64,000 bases of DNA from Microbotryum violaceum (GCA_001244265.2 CDLV01000004.1:3348001-3412000); one strand, 5' to 3'; shown: positions 2 to 64,000, numbered from the stretch's first letter. Notes: generated by a model not told the origin, from the sequence alone. Program-made: numbers and translations.

Positions 2-1446
<1,445 letters not shown>

Positions 1447-1452
<6 letters not shown>

Positions 1453-4400
1453 CCCCCCTTGCTCTTGGCCTGAAATGCGGCGCAGACCGATGGCGTCACA
1501 ATGACGCTGGAAGACTACTCGCGGCAGCGGCTTGGTGAAAATGTCGGCAACCATATCGTGGGTTGGGATGTAGGTGACCGAGATCTCTCCATTCCGAACA
1601 TGCTCCCGAACGAAATGCTCCAACATGCGCAAATGTTTGGTGCGAGCGTGGAAGACCGGATTCTGGGTGAGCGCTATAGCTCCCTGGTTATCCCGAGAAG
1701 ACGTAAAGGGGACGACGTATCGAGACCGAGTTCGGTGAGGAGCGAGCGAAGGAAGACAGCCTCCTTGGCTGCATGCGAGAGGCCCAGGTACTCCGCTTCC
1801 GTGGATGAACAAGCTACGCGAGGTTGGAGACGAGATGACCATGAGATGGCCCCACCCGCCAGTTTGAACAAGTAACCCATAGTGGACCTCGACGTCTGTA
1901 TGTCCGATCCCCAGTCCGAGTCAGAGTACCCCTCGTACCCCAGCAGAGGCGCACTGGTGCGCGTGTAGTGTATGCCAAGATCGAGCGATCCTTTGATGTA
2001 ACGAAGGACGCGCTTGGCCGCCTCGAGGTGAGTGTCGCCAGCCTTGCCGACGAAACGTGACAGATATCCGACGGAGTGGGCTAGATCAGGGCGAGTGGCA
2101 ACAACAGCGTACATGAGTGAGCCGATCATGGAACGGTAGATGGCATTGTCGGCGGAGTCTGTATCGGGTTCCGGCGAAAGCTGTAGGTTGGCTTCCATGG
2201 GTGACTTGCAGGGGTTGCAGTCGGACATGTTGAAGCGATCCAAGACGTCAAGGAGGTATTGACGCTGGAGAAGGGAGATCCCGCCATCGTCGTGTCGTAC
2301 GACCTGAACCCCGAGTACCCATTCGGCCGGGCCGAGGCGTTTGACTCCGTAGAGGGTGTCGAGTTGGTCAAGGACTCGATCGATTTCCCCGAGATCCGGC
2401 CCAAAGAAGAGTAGATCGTCGACGTAGAGTGCAATGTAGTGATCACCCCAGCGTCCTCATGACGATAGATGCATTCGTCGCAGGCGAGGCGACGATAGCC
2501 GAGACTCGCGAGCGTGGCGTTGATCGTGTCGTTCCACACTCGACCTGCCTGCTTGAGACCGTAGATCGATCAATGAAGGCGGAGGCATTTGCCTTCGTAG
2601 CCTTCGATGCCAGTTGGAACCCGCATGTAGATCTCCTCCTCCAGCACACCGTGAAGATAGGCCTTGTCAACGTCGGCTTGAATGATGTGGTGGCCCTTCG
2701 AGGCCGAGTGCGCGATGAGCGTGCGGATGGAGGTGTACTTAGCCGTGGGTGAGAAGGTGTTGTTGAAGCTGTTTGGGCCTTGTGCGCAGCCCTGTGCAAC
2801 AATGCGGTTCTTCAGTGAAACCATCTTCCCGGCTTTGTCGCGTTTGGTTCGAAAGACGTGACGACTTGGTAAGATCGTAGCTCCTTTGGGCACGGAGGAT
2901 AGTCCGACGACGCTGAACACCTTGAGATCGTCTTTCATCGAGCGGAATTCCTCAATGGCTCCCGCTTTCCATGCCGCGGCGTGAGGATGGCGCATGGCCT
3001 CATTCCATGTGGTGGGATCACTGCTCGGGAGCGAGAACGGGTCCTCTGGTTCCGAGAGCGGTCGATTCGCCGTCGAGGTGTCAATGCCCGCCGCGTCGAG
3101 ATCAGCAACAAGTTCGGTTACCTCCTTGCCTAGAGAGAATGCGAAGGCAGAAGGGGTCGAGCGCAAAGATGCTAGGGCGCCGTAACGAGGTGGGGGGTTG
3201 CGCGGGCGCGAACCCACGGGTGGCTGCCACGCGGGCCCCGGTGCGTCGAAACGTAAAGCAGCCGGAAGCTCCGCTTGGTCGGGGGGTGCCTGATTGGCAT
3301 GCTGGTCAGGGAGTACAACGACTTCGTCATCGTCGTCGTCGTCGCCTGCAACGGGCGCGTGAGCTGCTGTGATGCCCTCCCGCCTGGCTGGGAACTCGTC
3401 CTCGAAGAATGTGACGCTGCGCGATTTGAAAACTTGTCTGGTAGCGGGGTCAAACAGTCGGTATCCCTTGGATTCGAGATCGTAGCCGACGAATACGAGT
3501 GGAATGCCCCGCGGATCGAGTTTGCTGCGCGCTTCGGTGGTAGCTGCCTTCCACGCTCTGCAGCCGAATACGCGGAGATGGCCGGCTGACGGCTTCGATC
3601 CGTGCCAACGCGTGTGTGGTGTGACGCCTGAATTTGCCGAGTGTGGTGAGCGATTTTTGACGTAGACATATGTCGCCAATGCCTCGGCCCACAAAGCGTG
3701 AGATAGACCCGACTGGTGGAGCATTGATCGGACACCCTCGGTGATCGAGCGATTTGCGCGTTCGGCAACCCCGTTTTGCTGAGGGGCATCGGGAATCGAA
3801 AGCTGACGAGTGATGCCTTGTTCTTCCAGGAAGCTCGAGAACTCGTTCGACAAGAATTCACCACCGTTGTCGGAGCGGACTGCCAGGAGTTTTCTCGACG
3901 AGGAGCGCTCGACCTTTGCAAGCCACGACTTGAAGGCCGCAAAGGTATCGGACTTGTGCGACATCGGAATTGCCCAGAGATATCGGGTGTAATCATCGAC
4001 AATGACGAGGGCGTATTTTGCGCCGCCTAACGACACGGCGCCGTCGAACGCAAGAAGGTCCATGTGGACTCGATCAAGAGGCTGGGCTGAACGATTTGAC
4101 GCGACGGTGGGGAAAGGGTGATGTGTGATCTTCCCAGCCTGGCATGTATCACATTTCAAGTCTGCGTTCAATGCTACCTCCATGTTGACTCCCAGCACAG
4201 CCTCAGTTGAGATCAGCTGTCGTAGAGCGCGAGGGTGAAGGTGAGCGAAACGTCCGTGCATGATGGAGACGGGACGGCCGCGAACGCACGTGGGGACGCA
4301 CCCGGTTGCTCGATGAGAGTAGTGACGTCGACTAGGGAAGCATGCATGTGGTACAAGCCGTTCGTGATCTCCCCGGTGTGGCAAATCGACCCGTCGACTG

Positions 4401-5555
4401 AGACCGTTGCTTTGCCTCGGGAAAGGTTGATGTCGTAGCCCGCGGCGTTGGCGCGACTGGCGGAGAAGAGGCTGACCGGCGCGCTGGGGACGAACAACGC
4501 GTGGTGGAGTTGACCGATGCTGCCGTCGAAGGAGCGAACGACAGCGGAACCGACGCCTTCGATCGAATTGACCGCCTCGCCCGTGATGCCCTCGAGCGGA
4601 GCAGGCTTGCACTTGCGGAAGTTGGTGAAACAAGCGCGATTGTTGACGATGTGATGCGTCGCGCCGCTGTCGAGGATGAGGGAAGGTTTGGCCAATGTGG
4701 ACATCGCTGCGATGAGGTATCCGCGGACCGGGCCGTCTACCAACGTCGAGATGTCGGGAGCAGCGGCGAGTGATGCGGACGGCGCGGAGGAGGCCTTGGA
4801 CTTCTTGTCCTTGACGGGGCATTTTCGATTCCAGTGAGGACCTCCACAGTGTCGGCACGGAGCTGACGGAGTCGATGAAGATCTGTCCGTCGCGGTCAAG
4901 CTAGCTACCATCGCCACGGGCTTGTGTGCCGGCGTGGATTCAGCTTGAGTCTGAAGCGTTTGAAGCGCTTCAATCGGATCAGGGAGCTTGTCGAGGTCTT
5001 GACGGAGCGCTTGAGTATAGTACTCCTTGTAGAGGTCCTTGCCAAAGTGGATCAAGCGTATCGAGATGACCTGGTCAAAGGTAAGGTTGTATCCCGAAAG
5101 AGTGTTAAACAGCTCAATGGTGTTGGCTTGGTACTTCTCGAACGCGTCGACACCGGAGGGAGGCGGACCCGCATCGAGCAGGGCTTGGAGCTTGATGAAG
5201 ATGTCGGTGACTGTGCCTGCTGCGACCGCTTTCTTGATCATCTTCAAGACGTCGGTGGGAGTGTGATCGAATCCATCTTTGATCTGCTTCTTGATGTTGA
5301 GGGAGACCGAGCGCCTCAAGAGCGCGATCGCTTGGAAGTTGGCGTGCTCCAGGTCGGTGCGCGCGTTGGGTTTCTGAATGGGCGTCGCAAGCGTGCAGTT
5401 CCAATAGTCGCCCCGAGAGCTCCACGGACGTCGTTGATCCATTGCGACCAGCCTCCCGCGTTGCGCAGGTGGCATGACGGGTCGATATCGCGGGGTTTGA
5501 CATAGACGATAGAGGTTGTTCCCCCTGATACCACAGTGTCCGTATCACCGGGCAT
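1447..5555 (-). pseudogene. Copia gag-pol polyprotein with several 1-bp frameshifts and one TGA at 2570
   Basis: CRHCGGPHWNRKC knuckle, LILDSGATHH protease, integrase VRSDNGGEF and PQQNGVAER, RT ADVDKAYLHG and YVDDLL, RNase H YSDSDW and SSTEAEY. Confidence 0.92.
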
Positions 5556-5605
5556 GATGACTTGATGACTCGAGTTGGCTGGGCCGCTACGTTGGGCTCG
5601 TAACC

Positions 5606-6266
<661 letters not shown>

Positions 6267-6406: not shown

Positions 6407-13484
<7,078 letters not shown>

Positions 13485-18032: not shown

Positions 18033-18136
18033 TTGGCTGACGCTGAGTCATGACTAGAATGCACGGATGCGCGCTTGAACAATGAGCGTGGAACTCTTAC
18101 CGCTAAAGCTGAACAGACAGCCAAATTTTTCCACAT

Positions 18137-18164
18137 GCGCCTCTGGCTGGGCTTTCGGGGGTCC
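18137..18164. repeat. Orphan copy of the GGACCC TIR motif
   Basis: GCGCCTCTGGCTGGGCTTTCGGGGGTCC matches the ends at 24000, 26410, 29821 and 32239. Confidence 0.7.
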
Positions 18165-18370
18165 TCTCTCGCCTATCGACTCACCGAGGCGCGCCCGCTG
18201 GTCTCCGCAGGTCTCCGCTGTTCGCCTTCTGTCGCCTTCGGCAACCGGCCATCAATGCGTCCTCACCCGCTTACGTCATTCCTGTCGGCTACGCCCGGGT
18301 CTTGTTCCAGCTCCCAGCTCCGAGTCCTCCCTCGCCCTCTGGTCTAACCCTCAGGCATGCACTAAGTGCC

Positions 18371-21757: not shown

Positions 21758-21940
21758 TCTCTATATTCTTTATTCTATCCTTAAAACTATCTACTATCTA
21801 CATAAATGAATCTGTGTGGCTAAATCTTTAAACTATTTAAAAAGAACTGTGTGGCTAAAGAACGTCAAAGAACCACTGAGGGCCGTAGAGAGCGGGGAAT
21901 TCCACGGAATACCCGAGGTCTCGTCTGGTATTTACAAAAA
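21758..21940 (+). mobile_element. Probable Helitron 5' end(s), AT-rich
   Basis: A|TCTCTATATT, A|TCTACTATCTACATAAA and A|TCTTTAAACTATTTAAAAA starts; CTGTGTGGCTAAA occurs twice. Confidence 0.45.
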
Positions 21941-23987
21941 CCAGTGGGAACCCGTTAAATTAACGGGAGAATGAAATTCAAAAAATAGCAGGATAATCGA
22001 ACAGTCTACATGATCTCAGCGCAGAGGTTAAGAAAACACAATACGAAGTACAGCAAAACAACCAAATCCATTCATCCTACATTCATTGCCGAAACAGCCT
22101 GCATGTCGCTTGTTGCCGGACTTGGCTTCAAACACTCGTGCAATGAGATCCGGACGGTTGCATGCTTTGTCACTCGGCCCCAGTGCAGCCTTGATTTCCG
22201 GTGCTTCGGGGTCGTACGTCATCGTGATGAGCAGCGGAGGTTTTCCATGTTTGACAACGCACGCCATCGCATCCTGGTATCGCTGCCACGTGATGTCGCG
22301 ATTTGGTTCGGGGTCAAGCCGTTGATGCCTTGGGTCGTGGTGAGGCGTAGGTTCTCTTGATGTAACCGGATTTGTTGAGTCAATCGGTCTTGACTTGGGA
22401 GTACATCCGTAATTCACGAACTCCAGGAAGGGACGTTGGGTGCCATGCGGGATTGAGAAGTGCTCGTCGCGTTTGGCAAGTAGTGCGCAAAGAATTGTGA
22501 ACGCGAGACTCGCCACCTCGACCCCTTTACTTGACCTTTGTCCTAGGTGTTCAAAAGTTCAATGTCAGTCTGTGCTTGCGCCTTGAACAGAATGGAGCAT
22601 CCGAGAAAGAGCCGAAGACGGGTACGTTCACCATCACCATTCTTTTCGTCCCCCGCCGTCTTCATCCTCATCGTCACAGTCTTCGTCCTCCTCTTCGCCT
22701 TCGTCAGCAAGACCGAGACCGGCAAGTACCTCGCGCGATTGGACACCTTTGCCAATCTGCTCTCGGTTTCTGGCGATTGGCAGCCCAGCTTAGCAAAACC
22801 CGCAAAGAGGAATATTGGGGTGGAAGCCATCTTCCCCTGCAGGAAATAGTAGTGGGTAATGGAGAGTCGCGGACGGATGGAGCGAGCTAACGATTTGGTA
22901 CTTGGGCCGACCATCGGGACATCGATCGCCGTGCACCTGGAGAATAAGGTCTTGCGGTCCACGATCTCCGGTGTTGGTGTCGGAATCGCAGATAAGCATC
23001 GCCATTTCCGTGCTCGACGTAGGAGGGTTGTGGGTGCGTCGGTCCCGGCCTGGCGGGAGGCAGAGGCGCAGGATCCACTCTTTGGCCGTATCCCAACCTG
23101 CGCGAGGTTTGGCCGATGCGAACTCCCTCACAAAGTGATTCTTGGTACGCAACATGGACTCGAGCTTGGTCAAAGTAGATCGTTGCATGTGACTGTCTGC
23201 GCCGTCGGGTTCAAGTCGAGTGTCGGTGGCCTCGGCCGGGTTGATCAGCCATGTTTGAGCAAAGGCTGGGCATTGATTCACGGCAGGGATCAGGGCGCCG
23301 AGTCGATGGCAGAGGCGACCAAATACGCGAAACACGGGGGGTCCTAGCGTGCCCACTTGAGTTTGGTCCCAGTGGGCAGCAAGCGAAGTGAATGAAAACG
23401 CGTTGTTGTACGACCGGGCGTTCTCGCGGAACGCTTTCGCTTCTATGTGCGTGGGAAGATTGTCGTGGAAATATTGTCGCACAGTTCAGCATGTGGGCCT
23501 ACTGCAGACAGACGTTGTTGGACGGAGCAAATGACCGCTATCCGAGCCTTGAAGAAGCTGCCGATACTCGAGATTGGGCTGGGGAGGGGGAGATAGCCGC
23601 ACCTTGCCCTGCGAGCAGCACGCGCCGAAGTGTCTGGTCGACTTGGACCTTTCGCACTCCCAGTGCCGAGCCTTGCAGTGGGTGCACACGGCCGTCTGCG
23701 GGCCGAGGTCGTCGCGGATCGAAACGTGGGCTTGAGGGGTTTGAGCGCGATTCGAGCCCGGCGCACTCGCCTTTGCGGAGGCGGTGGTAAGGCGAGCCCA
23801 GCGTCGAGTTGGCCATCGCGCTGACCACGCTGTCCGTTCTGCACAGCTGCACGGTGGGCTCGTATACGTGTCGCAATGCCAAGATCGGTTAAATTGTTGT
23901 CATGACGCACCGGGGGCTGATTCTGTTGATCGGAGCGGGACGAAGAGGAGGGTCGAGCCGCCGGGCGTCCAGCAGCGGGCGCTCGAG
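21941..23987 (-). mobile_element. Helitron deletion derivative (Rep N-terminus plus 3' end)
   Basis: CTHCKARHW...CCSQGKV, FRENARSYNNAFSFTS, YPLLFPAGEDG, YQDAMACV...GKPPLLITMT...RPDLIARVF. The 3' end is hairpin CCCGTTAATTTAACGGG then CTGG|T. Confidence 0.88.
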
Positions 23988-26410
23988 CAGGCCCATGGAG
24001 GACCCCGAAAGCCCGGCCTGAGGCGCGTAGTGCCCGACTAGACAAATTGTGGGCCTCAGATGGGCCAAAATCGCCAAGGCGCGTAGTCGGGGCTGGACAA
24101 ATCAGGGTGCGCCGGTGCGGGGGGGTTCTAGGATCCTAGGCCCGTAGGTGCCAATGGACAAATCTGGACCCATTTCAGCCACATTCGGCTTGGTACGCCG
24201 GAGTTTGCCGACCCTCAAGAACGTGCGGAGCGCGCGCGAAACACTCTGGCCTGTACCGAATTCACAACAAGGGCTCTAATGGTTCGATTCTGCAATTAGA
24301 AGCCTCTTGGCCGGTTGAACGAGCCGTCTCGTCTGAGTGCGCCGTCTCTTGCCTCCCCCGCCGCGTCGCGTCGTCTGTGCCATCATCGTCATTATCCTAC
24401 GTTCTCGCTTCGCCAGCTTCGACGAAATGTATCTAGACGATCCGGATATCGAGCTTCTTGGCGATGATTTCGAGCGAATGGCACCCTTCTTGGACGTGAG
24501 GGTGTCTTGAGCTTCTCGCCTTCCGCTTCGACAGCCCACTGCAGACACCCAGATAACCCAGATACAGCTTTCATGGTCGACAGACGAGCCTCTCGAGTGT
24601 GATACTCTTCCTAGGCCGCTCGATGCTTGGACGGACAAGTTCAAGGATCGTGGAGCAATTACTGCGGCGCGTGAGCAAGGTTACCGGTCAATTGCTATCG
24701 CTGGGCACCGGCTGCCTTTCGGTGCCGAAGGATCTGGCGGCATATAGATTACGCCGAGCGCATGCGTTCGATCGTTATCAGCAGCCAAAAGTGGATGGAA
24801 ATTCATCTGGGTGTCGACATCAAAAGTCAGCATCTCATCGTGAAGGCTTTGGAGGTGCTGCCGTCACTGCTCATAGAGGAGCAATATACCCCCTCAAGGA
24901 TCCTCGGTGTAGCGCGTCTTTGCACTCGCTGCTCGATTTCGTTGGGAAGCAGCCAAGTTGTTCGTCTGTTCGATGGCGTGGATTGATTGGGATTATTTTT
25001 TGTGCTTTTCCTAGGGACAACGTGGCTTGGAGAAAGGTCTCGTCGTGCTGGACCCGAAAGAGCGGAAGTCGGTTGAAAACGCTGTTCGCTCTTTAGCTGC
25101 TCTTGGCCTTAACAATGATGCTGCACCGTAAATTGAGTGCCATGAGACCTGTACCAACCTTCTCTGAGCTGATCACTCATCTCTTCCAATTCTAGGCTTG
25201 CCATTCAGCAGGCCTATGACGAGGCCGATGCTCAAGCAGAGGAACACTTCCTGCTCAACGTCATTGTGACAGCAAATGAAAGCTTGTCGGGTCGTGTAGG
25301 TTCATCTAAGCAATTGGTTTCGTGTAGCAACACTAAATGGACCCATCATTCTTTCACAGGCTCAGATTATTCGGCTCCCATCCCTTCTGCGTCACGACAC
25401 TCGTCAGCTTGCGCTCGATCTGAAAAGCTTGATCGAGCACCGTCGGGCCCATCAATGTGCCCACCTCAAGGCTGTCCTACTCAAGGGAAGGTACGGCGCC
25501 CCCACCTCGACTGCCCAAGATTTCGATCCCACATCAAAAGCAAAATTGTCCGAGCACGGTGAAGTGCACTCCAGTGTCCTCCGAGGCTTAGTGCAATCAA
25601 TGGGTGCAGCCCGTCTCGAAGCTATGTCAGGAGTTGCGAGGTCCATTCGTTGGACAGGACAAGGGACCTTCAGTATCGTTTTGACCGCAAACGAGACAGA
25701 CAACATAGGATACATCGAAGAGGGACGTAAAGAAGTGAGCTACAATCGTGTGCTGTGCACATATGGCCCAGAGAGTGCTCATCAATAATGTTCATTCTTG
25801 CCCAGGTACGGATGCAATTGCGAGCAAGGCAATACACGGTGTTCGCCAAGATCCCAACGTTTGGGTCGATTGACGGAAACGTCACGTCAGCCATGCCTTT
25901 GAAAATCGGCTCTCTTGTCTGCTTCAGATTGAAACGAGGCATCATACCTGGCAGTTGTGACGCCAGCAACATAGGAAAAGAACAATTGTCCATTGGACTT
26001 GGTTCGTGCATCTCACTGTATCTAGCTTACTGCCTTGCAGAGTGACTGGCATCGTTTTTACCTCTCGTAGTACGTTACATGTATGCCAAGGCCACGTCAA
26101 ATCATAGTCAAAGAGGTAGGCAGGAAGTGCAGGTGAGGAGCCCTCGGCGAAGCAGAACTGAAGCGGCTGACGCGCGCGCGGGCTCCGGCGATTCGGTCCG
26201 GGCGAAAAACGTCCGGACGGCGTTTTCGCGATTTTTGAAGATGTTTTAGAGGAAGCAGTTCTAGAGCTATTTTTGGACGCGCGTAGATAGACTGGACATT
26301 CTGGGGACCTTTTTGGCCGAAAAATCCAAAAATTGGTAGACCAATGAGGTCCAAAATCGGGAATTTTGGCGGATTTTACCTACGCGCCTCAAGCTGGGCT
26401 TTCGGGGTCC
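23988..26410 (+). mobile_element. 2.4-kb non-autonomous TIR DNA element, copy 1, with a degenerate spliced gene
   Basis: About 31-bp TIR GGACCCCGAAAGCCCRGCYTGAGGCGCGTAG at 24000 and 26410, subterminal GGACAAAT motifs, and an inverted second copy at 29819-32254. Confidence 0.85.
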
Positions 26411-26862
26411 AGCTGGTAGCTCGTTGGGCTCATAACCTATGAAGTTGCGACGAACACCTGCTCAAGCGGTGGTAAGGCTCTGATCGACGGACCAAGGAGA
26501 CCAGACCAAGAAGTTGCTTGAATTACACACCTGCTCAAGCGGTGGTAAGGCTCTGATCGACGGACCAAGGAGACCAGACCAAGAAGTTGCTTGAATTACA
26601 CACCTGCTCAAGCGGTGGTAAGGCTCTGATCGACGGACCAAGGAGACCAGACCAAGAAGTTGCTTGAGCAGGAGAAAGAGAAGCGCGGAGCCAGTTGGCT
26701 CGGGTGAGCGCGCAGCTGGGCCAGCCACCTGTGTCAGGCGCACGGACCCAGCCCAGAAAGGAAGAGAGCTAAGGTGTGAAAGGCAGGTCAAAGGAAGTAA
26801 AACGAGACCGAGAAAAGGAGACATGATGCGAGAAGGAAACACAGGAGGTTGTCAATCTCACA
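26411..26862 (-). mobile_element. Copia 5' LTR plus PBS, truncated by the TIR element
   Basis: LTR at about 26438-26862, PBS GGTTATGAGCCC (26437-26426), and only about 8 codons of gag before the TIR. Confidence 0.75.
26454..26668. repeat. 73-bp perfect tandem repeat x~2.9 inside the LTR
   Basis: Units start at 26454, 26527 and 26600. Confidence 0.95.
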
Positions 26863-27240
26863 CTGCCCATGGTAGCCCATGGTACGGCGCTACCCTCGCG
26901 CCCAAGACTTGGCGAGGTTGCGATGGCCCTCCCTGAGTCCCTGGCGACCTTTGGACCGGGACATAGCAGCGAGGGTTTGTTCTTGAATGAGTGTCACTAA
27001 AATTGGATGAGAGTGAGAGGGAGAAAGGAAAGGTTCGAGGCAGTGGCGCAGGATTATTTACGTGGTATGATTTGTTGTTCAGCCCCTAATCCCGCTGGTC
27101 GACTGCCGGAATGACACTGACACCGCCGGCGCACCGCATCACGTGACAAACGCCAGCCCTCGCCTCGCGCGTCAGGCAGAGCTCTGCTGTAGAAGCAATA
27201 TCATGCAAAGCCACGCGCTTGCGTTTCATTAAATACCATA

Positions 27241-27744
27241 TGAGTGGAAGCATTGTTTTATACCAGCGAAAAAAAGAAGGAAAATACTGGGAGCGCTGTA
27301 GCTTCGTTGGAACGGCGCGGAAAATATAAAAGTCACCACAGGGCTTGTACATGACTTCTGATCGGAACCCCGACACCACAGGCAGGTGCGGTAGACACAA
27401 CAGTATGCTGGTACACCCACCACAGGCAACCCTCCAGGCCGCAACCTAGTTAAAAACAGCGATTTTAGGTACATTCCTTAACTCACCTTTTTTTTATAGA
27501 GAGGTAGTAAAGCGCTTGGGTAATACCCGACAGCCTGGTATTTCCAGAGCGCCTGGTTTTACCACGCGCCTGGGTATCTCCGGGCCCGTACCCATGTCGG
27601 GGGTGGGGGGAGGAGAGGAAAAGAAAAGAAGAAGAAAAGAAAAAAAAAGGACAAAAGGAGGGGGGGAAAAAGGTATGAGGCGCCGTTGCTAACACGAGCG
27701 CCGCAGAAAAAAGAAAAAAAAAAAAAAAATGCGCGCCGCGCGAG

Positions 27745-27776
<32 letters not shown>

Positions 27777-27960
27777 TCGACTCGGACGTTGCCCCTCGGA
27801 GCAGTCGGGAGCAGTCGGGAGCTCTGAAGCTCTGAGTCGCCGAGTGGCTGAGAGGTGACGAGTCTTCGTCTGCTTCGGGCCCCTTGAGTGCCCAACGTCC
27901 CGAGATGGCTACGTTGCCGCCTGTTCTCACCCACCTTCAAGACGGCGATCAGCATGCCCT
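27241..27960 (+). mobile_element. Possible Gypsy LTR, leader and gag start fragment
   Basis: TGAGT...ACTCA bounds (27241-27485) with TATAAAA, followed by CC-T8 as after the 8697 LTR, then A-tracts and MATLPPVLT. Confidence 0.3.
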
Positions 27961-28199
27961 AGGGACGGAAGTCGGCGACGAAGTGCTGGACGAAGAAGCC
28001 AAGACAGCGCTATTCGAAGAGATCCGAGTTCAAGGTTTCCAATCTAATGCTCTTGAGATTGAGGAGGCGCGGCGGATATATTGGTCGCTGTTCGATGGTC
28101 GGAAGAGAACCTTGCAATGTGACAGCTTTTCAAATCATACCCTATCGCTCGCTAGCTGGAATTGATGGTCCAAGCTGGGCCTCATCCGAGTGACAAAGT

Positions 28200-29729
28200 G
28201 ACAGCCGCGCAGTGTCGCCGATGCGCCGATCGTCTCTGTCTCGCACAAGAGTCAAAATTTGGTACATGTTACGAATTAATGTCTATAGTTTCAATCCGAA
28301 CTTGCTAGTCTACAACGCATGGTTAGTCTCGTGGCCGCGGGGACGAGAGGTTCGTTCTGAGCGTCGAGGGGAAAAAATCTCCGAAGGCGCGTTCGACAAG
28401 GCGGGGTAGCAAGACGAGTGAGATCTTCTGGAGTTTCGGTCGAAGAGCTAGCGGTAGCAGGTTCCCTTGAGTCGGCAAGTGATTGCATCTGTTGCTCAAT
28501 CACCTGCCTTGGCTGTCGCTTCGGACCAAAGTTCGGTGGCGGAGGTAACGTTTTCTCCTCTGATCCCTCTTCGGATCCGAACTTAGAATCATCTCCTGGA
28601 TCCTCTGCTTCCCCGCAAGGATGTCCTGAACCTGACGCCTCTCCATACTTGATTCCGAAAGTCCCGACGATGGTGAATCATCCTCGCTCGCTTTGTCGTC
28701 GTCGTCGTCCCGGCAGATCAACACTTGCGCTCTTTCCCCAGTCTTCCTCTTCTTCTGATTGCCTCCCACTTACGAATATTTGCACACCCTTGCCCTTCCT
28801 TCTCTCCTCCTTGCTAATGGGCATCACTTGCATCGCTTCGGCGGGGGAGGGGGAAGGGGCGCGCGAAGCGGATTTCTTGAGCCCGAGCTGAGCGCCACTC
28901 AGCCGGCCACGCGCCGAGCGTGGCGCTGGTGTAAAGAGCCTACCTCCATTGCGATCATCCGCATGTACCGGAGATGATCGCGACGTCCTTGCGTCGCTCG
29001 AGGTTGATCGGCTAAAAGCCGGGTCGGGCAATGGCGCGGTGGGAGCTGGATGACGGGTGGTCGAGGCGCGACTCGACGACTGCAAAAGAGTTGAGCTCGA
29101 TCCCGAGGGATAGACGAGGGACGACTTGAGGATGTGGAAAGAGTCGAGCCGGATTTGAAGGGATTTGGCCAGTCGTTAACGTAAGCCCGAGGCACATTGT
29201 CCCGGATCTAGTCTACGAAAGCGAGAGCCGAGAGATCAGCAATGGGACACGGAACAAGGGACGGCAAACGGCAAACGTGAATCGACGAGACTAACCTGTT
29301 TCCTCTCGACCCAGGTTGTGAGAGTTGATCAGCTCCAGATATGCTGCTGGACCTCGTTTCTCAGCCGCGACCCTAGCTTCCGTCTTGCCGAAAGCCATCG
29401 CGCGTTGTTCATTTGAGCGTAGATCGGCTCGGCGAGCTTCGATTTTGGCAGCCATGGCAGCGAATTGTTGTTCATTTTCTGGAGCGTTACCATCGGAGCG
29501 TTATCATCATGTTCATCATTTCGAGCTGTTGAACTGGAGTGAGTGGAGCTTGAGGTTGAGGTTTCTAAGAAGAGTCGGGCGCGAGCCCCACTACGCGCTC
29601 GGTATGTTGTTGTACCGAAGGAGGTGCATCGCCAGCGGTTGCAGCGCCAAAAGAAGAAGCCGTATCGAAATTCAAGGCCAAGCTGAGCAAATCGTCGGTC
29701 GAGCCAGATGTTGATCCGTTCATGTTCAT
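28200..29729 (-). pseudogene. Degenerate gene of unknown function
   Basis: Chain of broken same-strand frames, including a helical-looking EQQFAAMAAKIEARRADLRSNEQRAMAF segment; no recognised domain. Confidence 0.3.
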
Positions 29730-29818
29730 TGGGAGAGGCGAGGGGAAGACAGTGGCAGGAGGAAAAGAGGCAAATCCAGGCGGGACTCGAGGCGGTTGCC
29801 TCTGTGTCGGGCCGCCGG

Positions 29819-32254
29819 CAGGACCCATGAAAGCCCAGCCTGAGGCGCGTAGGTAAAATCCGGGAAAATCGCCGATTTTGGACCTCATTTGTCCAACATT
29901 TTTTGGAATTTTCGCCCAAAAAAGTCCCCAAAATGTCCAGTCCATCCACGCGCCTCAAAAAATAGCTCTAGATTCGCTTCAAATGCTCTAAAACATCTTC
30001 AAAAATCGCGAAAACGCCGTCCGGACGTTTTTCGCTCGGGCCGAATCGGCGGAGCACGCGCGCGTGTCAGCCAGTTCGGTTCTGCTTGGCCGAGGGCTCC
30101 TCACCTGCACTTCCTGCCTACCTCTTTGACTATGATTTGACGTGGCCTTGGCATACATGTAACGTACTACGAGAGGTAAAAACGATGCCAGTCACTCTGC
30201 AAGGCAGTAAGCTAGATACAGTGAGATGCACGAACCAAGTCCAATGGACAATTGTTCTTTTCCTATGTTGCTGGCGTCACAACTGCCAGGTATGATGCCT
30301 CGTTTCAATCTGAAGCAGACAAGAGAGCCGATTTTCAAAGGCATGGCTGACGTGACGTTTCCGTCAATCGACCCAAACGTTGGGATCTTGGCGAACACCG
30401 TGTATTGCCTTGCTCGCAATTGCATCCGTACCTGGGCAAGAATGAACATTATTGATGAGCACTCTCTGGGCCATATGTGCACAGCACACGATTGTAGCTC
30501 ACTTCTTTACGTCCCTCTTCGATGTATCCTATGTTGTCTGTCTCGTTTGCGGTCAAAACGATACTGAAGGTCCCTTGTCCTGTCCAACGAATGGACCTCG
30601 CAACTCCTGACATAGCTTCGAGACGGGCTGCACCCATTGATTGCACTAAGCCTCGGAGGACACTGGAGTGCACTTCACCGTGCTCGGACAATTTTGCTTT
30701 TGATGTGGGATCGAAATCTTGGGCAGTCGAGGTGGGGGCGCCGTACCTTCCCTTGAGTAGGACAGCCTTGAGGTGGGCACATTGATGGGCCCGACGGTGC
30801 TCGATCAAGCTTTTCAGATCGAGCGCAAGCTGACGAGTGTCGTGACGCAGAAGGGATGGGAGCCGAATAATCTGAGCCTGTGAAAGAATGATGGGTCCAT
30901 TTAGTGTTGCTACACGAAACCAATTGCTTAGATGAACCTACACGACCCGACAAGCTTTCATTTGCTGTCACAATGACGTTGAGCAGGAAGTGTTCCTCTG
31001 CTTGAGCATCGGCCTCGTCATAGGCCTGCTGAATGGCAAGCCTAGAATTGGAAGAGATGAGTGGTCAGCTCAGAGAAGGTTGGTACAGGTCTCATGGCAC
31101 TCAATTTACGGTGCAGCATCATTGTTAAGGCCAAGAGCAGCTAAAGAGCGAACAGCGTTTTCAACCGACTTCCGCTCTTTCGGGTCCAGCACGACGAGAC
31201 CTTTCTCCAAGCCACGTTGTCCCTAGGAAAAGCACAAAAAATAATCCCAATCAATCCACGCCATCGAACAGACGAACAATTTGGCTGCTTCCCAACGAAA
31301 TCGAGCAGCGAGTGCAAAGACGCGCTACACCCGAGGATCCTTGAGGGGGTATATTGCTCCTCTATGAGCAGTGACGGCAGCACCTCCAAAGCCTTCACGA
31401 TGAGATGCTGACTTTTGATGTCGACACCCAGATGAATTTCCATCCACTTTTGGCTGCTGATAACGATCGAACGCATGCGCTCGGCGTAATCTATATGCCG
31501 CCAGATCCTTCGGCACCGAAAGGCAGCCGGTGCCCAGCGATAGCAATTGACCGGTAACCTTGCTCACGCGCCGCAGTAATTGCTCCACGATCCTTGAACT
31601 TGTCCGTCCAAGCATCGAGCGGCCTAGGAAGAGTATCACACTCGAGAGGCTCGTCTGTCGACCATGAAAGCTGTATCTGGGTTATCTGGGTGTCTGCAGT
31701 GGGCTGTCGAAGCGGAAGGCGAGAAGCTCAAGACACCCTCACGTCCAAGAAGGGTGCCATTCGCTCGAAATCATCGCCAAGAAGCTCGATATCCGGATCG
31801 TCTAGATACATTTCGTCGAAGCTGGCGAAGCGAGAACGTAGGATAATGACGATGATGGCACAGACGACGCGACGCGGCGGGGGAGGCAAGAGACGGCGCA
31901 CTCAGACGAGACGGCTCGTTCAACCGGCCAAGAGGCTTCTAATTGCAGAATCGAACCATTAGAGCCCTTGTTGTGAATTCGGTACAGGCCAGAGTGTTTC
32001 GCGCGCGCTCCGCACGTTCTTGAGGGTCGGCAAACTCCGGCGTACCAAGCCGAATGTGGCTGAAATGGGTCCAGATTTGTCCATTGGCACCTACGGGCCT
32101 AGGATCCTAGAACCCCCCCGCACCGGCGCACCCTGATTTGTCCAGCCCCGACTACGCGCCTTGGCGATTTTGGCCCATCTGAGGCCCAAAATTTGTCCAG
32201 TCGGGCGCTACCCGCCTCAGGCCGGGCTTCCGGGGGTCCTTTTCGGGGGTCCTG
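29819..32254 (-). mobile_element. 2.4-kb TIR DNA element, copy 2 (inverted)
   Basis: CAGGACCC...GGGTCCTG termini. The interior is the reverse complement of copy 1, and the ORF track mirrors it. Confidence 0.88.
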
Positions 32255-59895: not shown

Positions 59896-59956
59896 CTAGG
59901 GGAGGTTCGAGATTTCATCGTCAGCTCAGGATCGCACGAACATAAGGAGGGGAGGG

Positions 59957-60218
59957 TGTAAGGAGGGAGGAGAGTTTGGTTTAGGTGGTGGAGAGTGTAA
60001 GGCCCGTGCGCCTGGGCCTTAGGAGGAGGGTACGCGCGCCTGGGCACTCTTAGTCTCTCTCCAGCGACTGATACGAGTGTCCAGGTGAGCACAAGGTGGA
60101 TCAGAAGGCATTGTCATACCAGCAACTGATACGAGTGTCCAGTGTCAATTCTACATACTTTGGTCCTGTGATCCTTGTCGTCGCCGCTCAGGTGTACACT
60201 CCAACGGGGTGTATTACA
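59957..60218 (+). repeat. Chromovirus LTR (59996-60218) with adjacent polypurine tract remnant
   Basis: Near-identical to the reverse complement of 8305-8527; preceded by GAGTTTGGTTTAGGTGGTGGAGAG as at about 13304-13327. Confidence 0.92.
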
Positions 60219-60219
60219 C

Positions 60220-60266
60220 TTGGCGCACTGAGTTGGCGCACTGAGTTGGCGCACTGAGTTGGCGCA
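60220..60266. repeat. 13-bp tandem repeat x3.6
   Basis: TTGGCGCACTGAG repeated. Confidence 0.9.
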
Positions 60267-62837: not shown

Positions 62838-64000
62838 TTTTGTGTAAGTTTTTTGGCCTATTTTGGCCCCAAAATGTCAAAATTTCGCATGCGCCTCGGA
62901 AATATTATCAAAATGTGTTCTACATGCTCCAAAAAACGCTCAAAAGTCCTCGAAAACGCGTTCCGAGCGTTTGCGGACGCGCGGCGGCCTATCGAAAGTG
63001 GCTTGTGGCGCGCGTCGCTTCGGCTGGTGTTGCGCGTGGCTCCACGCTTCAAACAAGCCTTCCTTGCTTTGCTGGCTGGCTCGCTGCTTCGTTGTCAGAC
63101 TTCCTTTTTGCTGAAGTTGAGATCCTTGTTTCCGCGGTGGCATTTGCGCGGCTTGTAGAGGTTCTGCCGGCGGCATCTCGCAGGCCGGGCACGCTCCGAA
63201 GGGCGGCAAATCTTTGCTCGGCATGTGCGCTCGTATTCATTAGGCGCTCGTCCGGGTAACATGAGGTAAGGTCCGTGGTTGAACGATATGTAGTCGTTGA
63301 CGGGCCTAATGACTCGATGACCTGTCGACCATCAATCATGCGGAACGGCATAGTGCCATCAATGAGGTGTGTGGAATAGCATGTTTTCTTGATGAGGCGA
63401 AGCTCCTGTACGACGACATTTGAGAGTAGAACCAACGAGGCGAGCGTGTCTTGGTTGCAGTGGTTTGTTGTCACTCTGCTGTAGATGTGTCGCACTGTAG
63501 GACACAAGACTTGTGTCAAACGAGAACTTCACAGCTCAACTGCCATTCAAGGCATCGTACCAATTCCAATGAACAGCACTTCGTCTCCATAGGCAGTTTG
63601 GTCGCAGCTGAGTGAATGCATGCCACACTTGAGGCCAAAGCAGATCAGAGATCCAATCTCCAGTGGTGTGGCAGCGGTTACAGCTCCGTCAAGCGATCCA
63701 AAATGAGGATAGCGTTGTGCTAGCGCTCCATACTGCTTGTCTCTCTCAGGGAGCTTTTCCTAAAAGTATCGGACCGGCAAAACATTAGATCCAGTTGCCT
63801 TCGTTCCTAAATTCAGCAACAACTCACTTGAATGCGGCCATCCTCAATATAGGTGTTCTTCTGAATCTCGTTCAAGCTCCTCGTCGTGCCCGCCATGTCT
63901 TCGCAGCGAGATGGTCCCATGGACTGTACCAACCCTTTCAAGACGCATGAATGCGTTGTACTGCGTCCTTCCTCTGTATTGCTAACCCCTACGCCTGCCT
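62838..64000 (-). mobile_element. Divergent member of the GGACCC-TIR family (subterminal region plus 3' exons), running off the window
   Basis: 62840-62990 resembles the subterminal region at 29900-30040. Exons at 63955-63049 are homologous to the gene in the 2.4-kb elements. Confidence 0.75.

Follow-up and report, generated by a model that had tools for sequence, protein, structure and literature searches.

Flies and vertebrates harbour the P-type transposons familiar from textbooks, and the Drosophila P transposase is 751 amino acids (aa) long. Rusts and Microbotryum both belong to Pucciniomycotina. In the rusts, the elements P-1_PSt, P-1_MLP, P-2_MLP, P-N1_MLP and P-N2_MLP were reported in 2011, with target-site duplications (TSDs) of 8 bp (PMC3164196). 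A fungal survey has Repbase P entries from Pucciniales and Allomyces only and counts 11 copies by Pfam domains ("11 ... single occurrences"; PMC5751038). Genome papers on Microbotryum take elements with terminal inverted repeats (TIRs) as one class (PMC4469406, PMC10502011). Here we describe an inverted pair of 2.4-kb repeats in a 64,000-nucleotide stretch of Microbotryum violaceum DNA (GCA_001244265.2 CDLV01000004.1:3348001-3412000), the whole of which is called the window. The pair very probably consists of non-autonomous, internally deleted copies of a P-like cut-and-paste DNA transposon of Microbotryum. This classification draws on the directly observed anatomy of the copies, on homology, on the fold of a predicted protein model, on 8-bp TSDs in relatives, and on spliced, transcript-like contigs.

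Two further groups come close to the family described here. Zisupton carries a Ulp1 domain. Zisupton/KDZ elements also resemble the family in their 8-bp TSDs, their abundance in Agaricomycetes, and their large transposases (PMC12730594, PMC5751038). Ginger1 and some Mutator-like elements are alike in holding a Ulp1 C48 domain within the transposase polypeptide or the element (PMC2836005). The preliminary description of the locus had called the P superfamily rarely reported in fungi; the rust elements have been in print since 2011 (PMC3164196).

The inverted 2.4-kb pair and its gene remnant

The features of the pair, with strands relative to the window, are as follows.

23999..26411, plus strand: copy 1, 2413 bp, probable non-autonomous P-like element with two internal deletions
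29820..32240, minus strand: copy 2, 2421 bp, the same deletion derivative, inverted, with its 3' end at 29820 and its 5' end at 32240
24000..24030, plus strand: 5' TIR of copy 1, beginning GGACCCCGAAAGCCC (repeat search)
26380..26410, minus strand: 3' TIR of copy 1 (repeat search; 2 mismatches)
24041..24163, plus strand: three ~25-bp subterminal direct repeats ending in (G/A)GACAAAT, at 24041-24048 (variant), 24095-24102, and 24156-24163
24428..25034, plus strand: 5'-exon remnant (N-terminal ~190 codons) with its ATG at 24428, from tblastn of P0002 and P0025 and from gene models
25035..26250, plus strand: 3'-exon remnant (C-terminal region), from tblastn of P0018 and P0010 and from contig exon joints

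The repeat search of the window returned the arm pairs 24003-24907/31331-32235 (905 nt, 99%) and 24906-26251/29986-31331 (1346 nt, 99%), with a third collinear pair at 26252-26403/29829-29980 (152 nt, 87%). Self-BLAST of the window aligned 23999-26416 with 32240-29815 at 98.06% identity over 2426 columns. Both searches bear out the two inverted 2.4-kb copies with ~31-bp TIRs that had been described. The outer limits first given, 23988 and 32254, lie 11-14 bp beyond the repeat, and the termini, first read as CA...TG, are actually AGGACCC...GGGTCCT. Each copy is bounded by TIRs of 31-32 nt that start with (A)GGACCC. The TIR pair 24000-24030 and 26380-26410 is 94% complementary over 31 nt, and the TIR 31-mer, allowing 3 mismatches, has two matches in the window and none in 100 shuffles. 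Five GGACCC termini occur in the window, at 24000 and 29821 on the plus strand and at 26410, 32239, and a solitary position, 18164, on the minus strand; an A precedes four of the five, and the bases farther outward are not conserved. The terminal A of copy 1 is assigned from relatives, and its 3' terminal base is A, not T. Contigs from other genomes cease to match copy 1 at ~24003 and ~26403.

The subterminal motifs also stood up to a count: GGACAAAT has six matches in the window, all within the two copies, where 1.62 are expected and none of 100 shuffles reaches six. These repeats lie on the sense strand, the first ~43 nt from the end. GGACAAA is found in the window copies at 43, 98, and 159 nt, and copy 2 has it again 75 nt short of its 3' end. 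The (G/A)GACAAAT repeats are presumed to be candidate transposase-binding sites.

The gene inside each copy is spliced and incomplete. Its 3' remnant comprises exons at approximately 25035-25127, 25196-25295, 25360-25734, 25806-26001, and from 26071 onward; the intron at 25735-25805 is in phase 0, two codons past the motif YIE[ED]GR, and the intron at 26002-26070 is in phase 1. Contigs of run X17, whose library kind is not recorded, join 25127 to 25196, 25295 to 25360, 25734 to 25806, and 26000 to 26070, all at GT..AG, and the joints resemble what assembled transcripts of the family would show. Stretches that contigs did not cover, and the lack of an empty-site joint, were given no weight in the contig comparisons. 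The first deletion breakpoint, at ~25034, falls exactly where the Ulp1 domain begins in fuller copies, and the second, at 26115/26116, lies in the last exon, part of which is lost. At 26115, the contigs of runs X1 and X15 run on into undeleted sequence, and an X11 contig piece stops there. Both copies carry a -1 frameshift after 24727, where an A present in the contigs of four runs is missing, and copy 1 has another -1 shift at 24905; the reading frame of the remnant is therefore broken.

Predicted proteins of the family match the window at their two ends: P0025 only at aa 23-162 and 1324-1486, and P0018 only at aa 1047-1272. The ~1150 residues between the N- and C-terminal parts of the full proteins are missing from the window copies, and with them the copies have lost the Ulp1 domain, a Cys/His region, and all of the catalytic core. 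What the copies keep is both element ends together with the first ~190 and the last ~230 codons. The preliminary description had spoken of a conserved spliced gene, rightly in that a conserved part of a transposase is present; it missed that the copies are deletion derivatives and that the first exons are kept as well. We infer that this gene is a passively retained transposase remnant rather than a cargo gene.

Deleted P elements of the KP type are similar in that both ends are kept, the middle of the transposase is lost, and transposase is needed in trans. KP still has its N-terminal DNA-binding domain and works as a repressor, whereas the window copies are without the Cys/His region and are frameshifted, so that a repressor role for them is unsupported. 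Internally deleted P elements measure 0.5-2.8 kb (PMC7776569). Of this family, the window has two dead non-autonomous copies, plus one fragment described below, in a repeat-rich region.

Family proteins and the predicted catalytic core

The exon at 25360-25734 matches 23 proteins at E<=0.001 among 704 candidates, at 62-93% identity, and the gene is therefore multi-copy. All 23 come from Microbotryum silenes-dioicae or M. lychnidis-dioicae by their source names, and none carries a relevant Pfam annotation. The longest Microbotryum relatives are the predicted proteins P0018 (1375 aa), P0025 (1517 aa), and P0009 (862 aa). A search with P0009 retrieved 517 cluster representatives at E<=1e-3, of which 341 were at <=1e-10; most are 1400-2000 aa long and match in their second half. 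Among 30 that were looked up, 28 were named relatives, from Microbotryum, Phenoliferia, Naganishia, and many genera of Agaricomycetes, which by genus we take to be basidiomycetes throughout; none of the 28 was from a rust. Word-based protein searches with P0009 residues 100-540 and with a family alignment added almost solely Microbotryum proteins. No transposase annotation of this lineage was present in the protein records checked.

The long members share more than a core. Peptidase_C48 (PF02902, Ulp1) was matched in the N-terminal third of 7 of the 18 long members, the family profile matched yeast Ulp1 (1euv_A) at E 4e-17, and the Ulp1 catalytic H/Q/D/C columns are retained in 39-40 of 42 sequences. 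By fold profile and catalytic residues, the long members are thus predicted to carry a Ulp1/SENP (peptidase C48) domain. The Cys/His-rich region that follows (P0018 165-402) was modelled at a predicted local distance difference test score (pLDDT) of 87; compared with Protein Data Bank (PDB) folds, this model found no match (best Z 3.5, Foldseek E above 2), and an ESM Atlas search with P0018 190-400 returned nothing usable; the missing fold match is no sign that the fold is new. The C-terminal region was modelled weakly, with pLDDT mostly <60 after residue 540 of P0009, and yet is conserved family-wide, with motifs LV..R..HQT and G..R..RW in alignments of 70 and 42 sequences.

These proteins also bear on whether the spliced gene is part of a transposase at all. 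It could instead be captured host cargo, or a second, unrelated open reading frame fused on by gene predictors. Exon by exon, Pfam gave nothing for four of six pieces and chance-level matches for the other two (E 0.07-0.21), so that no domain names the gene, its C-terminal region has the low model confidence just given, and the full-length proteins are predictions only. Set against this, the region comes after the core within one predicted polypeptide both in Microbotryum (P0018, P0009, P0025) and in Agaricomycete relatives, and its two motifs persist across the 70 and 42 sequences. P0034 aligns through aa 4-1864 along one whole metagenome element (L002, below) in one orientation, and all 23 exon matches are members of a repeat family, with no single-copy host gene among them. 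We consider the cargo or fused-frame explanation very improbable. The earlier proposal that the spliced gene is the C-terminal part of a transposase agrees with its place downstream of the DDE (aspartate-aspartate-glutamate) core in one polypeptide in P0018, P0009, and P0025.

The core itself was modelled with AlphaFold for P0009 residues 40-530, with pLDDT mostly >90. In Foldseek, the leading matches of this model were Drosophila P-element transposase chains, 6pe2_A (E 8e-15) and 6p5a_A (E 2e-14), with template-modelling scores of 0.67 and 0.70; the next match after the P transposase was Hermes, at E 8.5e-5. VIA-align against 6p5a_A gave Z 29.6 and a root-mean-square deviation (rmsd) of 3.9 A over 395 of 442 residues (chain positions 137-566), and its runners-up were Transib (13.0), RAG1 (12.1), Tn5 (11.1), and Hermes (10.8, rmsd 7.5). 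The match to the Drosophila transposase, in its strand-transfer complex, takes in the insertion domain. The predicted model therefore has an RNase H-like DDE core split by a P-type insertion domain, as in Drosophila P, THAP9, and Pdre2, where a large insertion lies between the second D and the E. In the P superfamily this insertion domain binds GTP, GTP is the cofactor, and the donor is cleaved with a 17-nt stagger.

P0009 residues D139, D261, D326-x2-H329, and E507 are invariant or >=90% conserved in alignments of 70 and 76 sequences. Their D..D..D(2)H..E pattern is like that of the P superfamily and fits its signature, D..D..[C/D](2)H..E (PMC8230255). They are equated with D230/D303/E531 by their order and by the surrounding secondary structure rather than by superposing individual residues. 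According to the 2011 work of Yuan and Wessler, several superfamilies reportedly share the [C/D](2)H motif. Recurrent Pfam matches point the same way as the fold: the only families matching more than one of 76 members were P families, PF21787 in five and PF12017 in three.

Whole elements in relatives and the probable P-superfamily assignment

With the metagenome relative P0181 as query, 24 metagenome loci were recovered, four of which hold bounded elements. These have inverted-repeat ends, 5'-AGGACCCC...GGGGTCCT-3', with the same starting bases as the window TIRs.

L002, 6017-12513: 6497 bp, 8-bp TSD GGCCAATC
L006, 180-6808: 6629 bp, 8-bp TSD AGCTGACC
L024, 2898-5072: 2175 bp, 8-bp TSD GGCGTCGT
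L004, 1703-8272: 6570 bp, no TSD

Perfect 8-bp TSDs thus flank three of the four; TSDs of 7-8 bp are expected for the P superfamily, and the two window copies, the Microbotryum copies covered, have none. In L002, L004, and L006, a single protein aligns over nearly the whole element, and P0034 aa 4-1864 on L002 positions 401-6062 shows one gene filling it. The full-length forms with a DDE core that the preliminary description had proposed looking for are represented by the predicted Microbotryum proteins and, probably, by these three elements. L024 is a deletion derivative that retains the C-terminal part, and its TIR start, AGGACCCCGGAAAG, is nearly identical to that of the Microbotryum copies. 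An exact TIR scan of the metagenome contigs gave no matches.

In the relatives, GGACAAA occurs on the sense strand only; counted from the 5' end it stands at 41, 85, (130), and 172 nt, and it is also found within ~250 nt of the 3' end. In L002, L006, and the window copies, the first GGACAAA(T) is reached 41-43 nt inward of the 5' end, and the subterminal repeats of the window copies have the same position and orientation as those of distant relatives. Microbotryum and its distant metagenome relatives thus share the termini, the motif and where it stands, and the orientation of the gene. TIRs of ~31 bp followed by internal repeated sites match the P-element layout (PMC7776569), and on sequence grounds the family has TIRs with internal sites as in the P superfamily. 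Abundant internally deleted non-autonomous copies are another point of likeness. Points of difference from P are the same orientation of the GGACAAA repeats at both ends, the N-terminal Ulp1 protease, and lengths of 1400-2000 aa.

Several results weigh against a P assignment and have to be set beside the fold. The structural alignment has ~14% identity and the family falls below the Pfam cut-offs: among the 76 members, no gathering score was reached for the curated P profiles PF21787, PF21788, PF21789, PF12017, and PF12596, with best values of E 1.1e-4 for PF12017 (22.9 bits against a cut-off of 23) and E 0.0081 for PF21787. P0009 and P0018 had zero Pfam hits, and profile searches of PDB sequences with two family alignments did not retrieve the P transposase; phmmer of P0018 and the profile searches against PDB sequences gave only Ulp1 or chance matches and no transposase. 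The tie to P families at the level of sequence is therefore weak. The N-terminal C2CH DNA-binding domain of the P superfamily, THAP, was not detected by Pfam in P0018 (E<=10) or in the 18 long members (E<=0.001), and nothing in the PDB matched the fold modelled for the Cys/His region. The full-length proteins are automatic gene predictions, some of them chimeric. Of the bounded relatives, L004 is without a TSD, and a scan of both window copies found no flanking direct repeat of >=6 bp in any register or cross-combination, which leaves the 8-bp footprint first described at this locus without a counterpart. Insertion 5' of genes, also offered earlier as a ground for P, comes down to two or three cases.

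These points give some room to a different placement, in which the family would form a superfamily of its own, or a lineage of the KDZ/Zisupton or Kolobok type, that merely shares a split RNase H fold, 8-bp TSDs, and Ulp1. The marginal sequence similarity to P families and the failure to detect a THAP domain would suit it, as would the 8-bp TSDs of Zisupton, an element common in Basidiomycota (PMC12730594, PMC5751038). No KDZ or Kolobok chain was among the structure matches, a further point against P, and the fold match therefore cannot rank those superfamilies. Against such a placement, KDZ/CxC Pfam families had no match in the 18 long members (E<=0.001), the 76 members (E<=0.05), or P0018 (E<=10), the recurrent Pfam matches are to P families only, and the structure match, which includes the insertion domain, stands at Z 29.6 against 13.0 for the next fold. 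The family fold is specifically P-like where Zisupton/KDZ is concerned, and we think a non-P placement unlikely.

A hAT or Mutator-like element (MULE), the alternatives named in the preliminary description, is far less likely still. An 8-bp TSD would fit hAT as well, and Hermes is among the fold matches. Yet Hermes reached only Z 10.8 (rmsd 7.5) and Foldseek E 8.5e-5, compared with Z 29.6 and E 8e-15 for P, and no hAT dimerisation, MULE, or Transposase_mut Pfam family was matched in any scan. Ginger1 and the Mutator-like elements with a protease differ in their cores, which are of the integrase type or MULE; Ginger1 also has its protease at the C-terminal side, whereas here it is N-terminal to a P-like core. 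By the fold values and the 8-bp TSDs of three in four relatives, the original guess of the P superfamily is supported, although not on the grounds first given for it.

In distant relatives a full-length element measures ~6.5 kb and is filled by one long intron-containing gene. If the P-like reading is right, that gene would encode, in order, an N-terminal region, a Ulp1/SENP-type cysteine protease, a Cys/His-rich region, a helix-turn-helix, the split DDE domain, and a poorly structured C-terminal region. The DDE domain would be RNase H-like and interrupted by the large P-element-type insertion domain, and the Cys/His region is presumed to bind DNA. A full-length copy would supply transposase, and the deleted window copies could be moved only in trans. 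By analogy with the P-element model, the Cys/His region and the helix-turn-helix may recognise the GGACAAA repeats and the TIR, and the DDE site may cut at the AGG...CCT termini and insert with an 8-bp stagger. Internal deletions would arise as they do in P elements. GTP use and a role for the protease are likewise suggested from the P-element model (PMC7776569).

Flanks, neighbouring loci and the place of the lineage

The two copies do not diverge evenly. Between 24050 and 26148 they show three differences, whereas the first 50 bp have 11 differing columns and the last 262 bp (26149-26410) have 36. The pair is therefore a mosaic, its centre probably homogenised by gene conversion between the inverted copies. 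The 3' flanks of the two copies are alike over 12 bp (8/12 bases match, and the four differences are all transitions), and GCGCYYGAGCAGG is present in both 5' flanks. One further feature lies directly outside copy 2.

32241..32253, minus strand: the 5' terminus of the element itself repeated in tandem over 13 nt (AGGACCCCCGAAA)

It could have been left as a footprint, either when an element was excised earlier or when one inserted aberrantly.

The same flanks raise a question about how the pair arose. The 8.2 kb at 23999-32240 might be one composite, foldback-like unit with 2.4-kb inverted arms, produced by a single inverted duplication or aberrant transposition, rather than the outcome of two separate insertions. 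In favour of such a unit, the 5' ends of both copies face outward, TSDs are lacking at both, the flanks have the similarities just given, and the centre is near-identical (3 differences in 2.1 kb, with 11 and 36 differing columns at the ends). However, the outer flanks have no TSD for the composite either, and the flank similarity is short and lies within GC-rich repetitive DNA. We hold a composite origin to be possible but rather doubtful; it would concern only how the pair came about and not what the element is.

Copy 1 adjoins the 5' region of a minus-strand Helitron, whose 5' part occupies 21932-23999 (Helitron_like_N, E 1e-11, in 22028-22558). The Helitron segment 21932-22802 recurs inverted at 62847-61927 with 92-98% identity, and the shared boundary 21932/62847 comes after a CCGTTAATTTAACGG palindrome. 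Contig depth is several-fold higher in the flanks than in the element in runs X1, X15, and X11, and not throughout in X17. Just outside copy 1, a 73-bp tandem repeat occupies 26454-26672, with three copies at 100/100/93% identity. In runs X1, X15, and X11, contigs cover this flank ~5 to 90 times as deeply as they do the element bins, and it is therefore part of a far more abundant repeat. Between the two copies, a long purine/A-rich low-complexity tract runs from 27604 to 27773.

Two more parts of the window carry family-like sequence.

62848..64000, minus strand: third locus, a diverged family member present by its 3' part and truncated where the window ends
18135..18165, minus strand: solitary TIR-like end (AGGACCCCCGAAAGCCCAGCCAGAGGCGCATG), with similarity stopping behind the TIR

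Over most of its match to the copy-1-type proteins P0018, P0002, and P0010, the third locus is 36-44% identical in aa; it is nearer to P0025. Its exons end at 63828 and continue at 63759-63561 and 63494-63049, the last of them undeleted, and its introns, 63827-63760 (phase 0, two codons past YIE[ED]GR) and 63560-63495 (phase 1), have the same codon positions and phases as those of copy 1. By tblastn, 25357-25737 and 25803-26126 correspond to 63953-63825 and 63744-63058. The translations quoted earlier for the two loci are present and are tied together by this match, and the claim of shared introns held. At its 3' side, the subterminal DNA of the third locus can be aligned to that of copies 1 and 2, and it has one and the same orientation to the gene in all three, again as first described; the 3' TIR of this locus is replaced by the Helitron-like repeat from 62847, which abuts it. 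The solitary end is followed by three ~34-bp direct repeats and, ~320 bp on, by an ATG at ~17812 on the minus strand; a search for a partner end to 18135-18165 found none.

P0002 is a chimeric gene model whose residues 87-125 derive from a long terminal repeat (LTR) element. Their match at 7737-7853 was considered as a further family copy and rejected as an LTR-derived piece. The region 7737-8530 holds the pol end of an LTR retrotransposon with a chromodomain-like motif, then an LTR-like repeat that recurs near 13000-13366 and 59947-60221. Elsewhere, short dispersed repeats of 72, 143, and 49 nt with 100% identity lie in 1287-1452 and 5606-5848.

The rust P elements resemble this family in their 8-bp TSDs and in having autonomous and non-autonomous forms, a comparison made by description only (PMC3164196, PMC5751038). 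In the literature covered, with Repbase outside the comparison, we found no description of a Ulp1-fused P-like transposase, nor of P elements in Microbotryum or Agaricomycetes. A wider reading is that the window copies belong to a Basidiomycota-wide, unnamed P lineage with an N-terminal fusion to a Ulp1 protease that looks intact and a non-THAP Cys/His region reading GGACAAA; surveys would then score fungal P elements as near-absent because the Pfam P profiles miss the lineage, and P elements would be common in Agaricomycetes and Microbotryomycetes. We judge the case for this wider reading to be evenly balanced. This Ulp1-fused lineage, in which no THAP domain was detected, may already be represented in Repbase by the P elements of rusts.

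The interest of the locus lies at the level of the family, in the Ulp1 fusion, the lack of a detectable THAP domain, the wide basidiomycete spread, and its invisibility to Pfam. If true, this would revise the known distribution of the P superfamily. It would put a name to part of the "TIR" or "unclassified" fraction in fungal transposable element annotation, including in studies of the Microbotryum mating-type chromosomes, and it would offer a compact system for the role of a SUMO-type protease inside a transposase.

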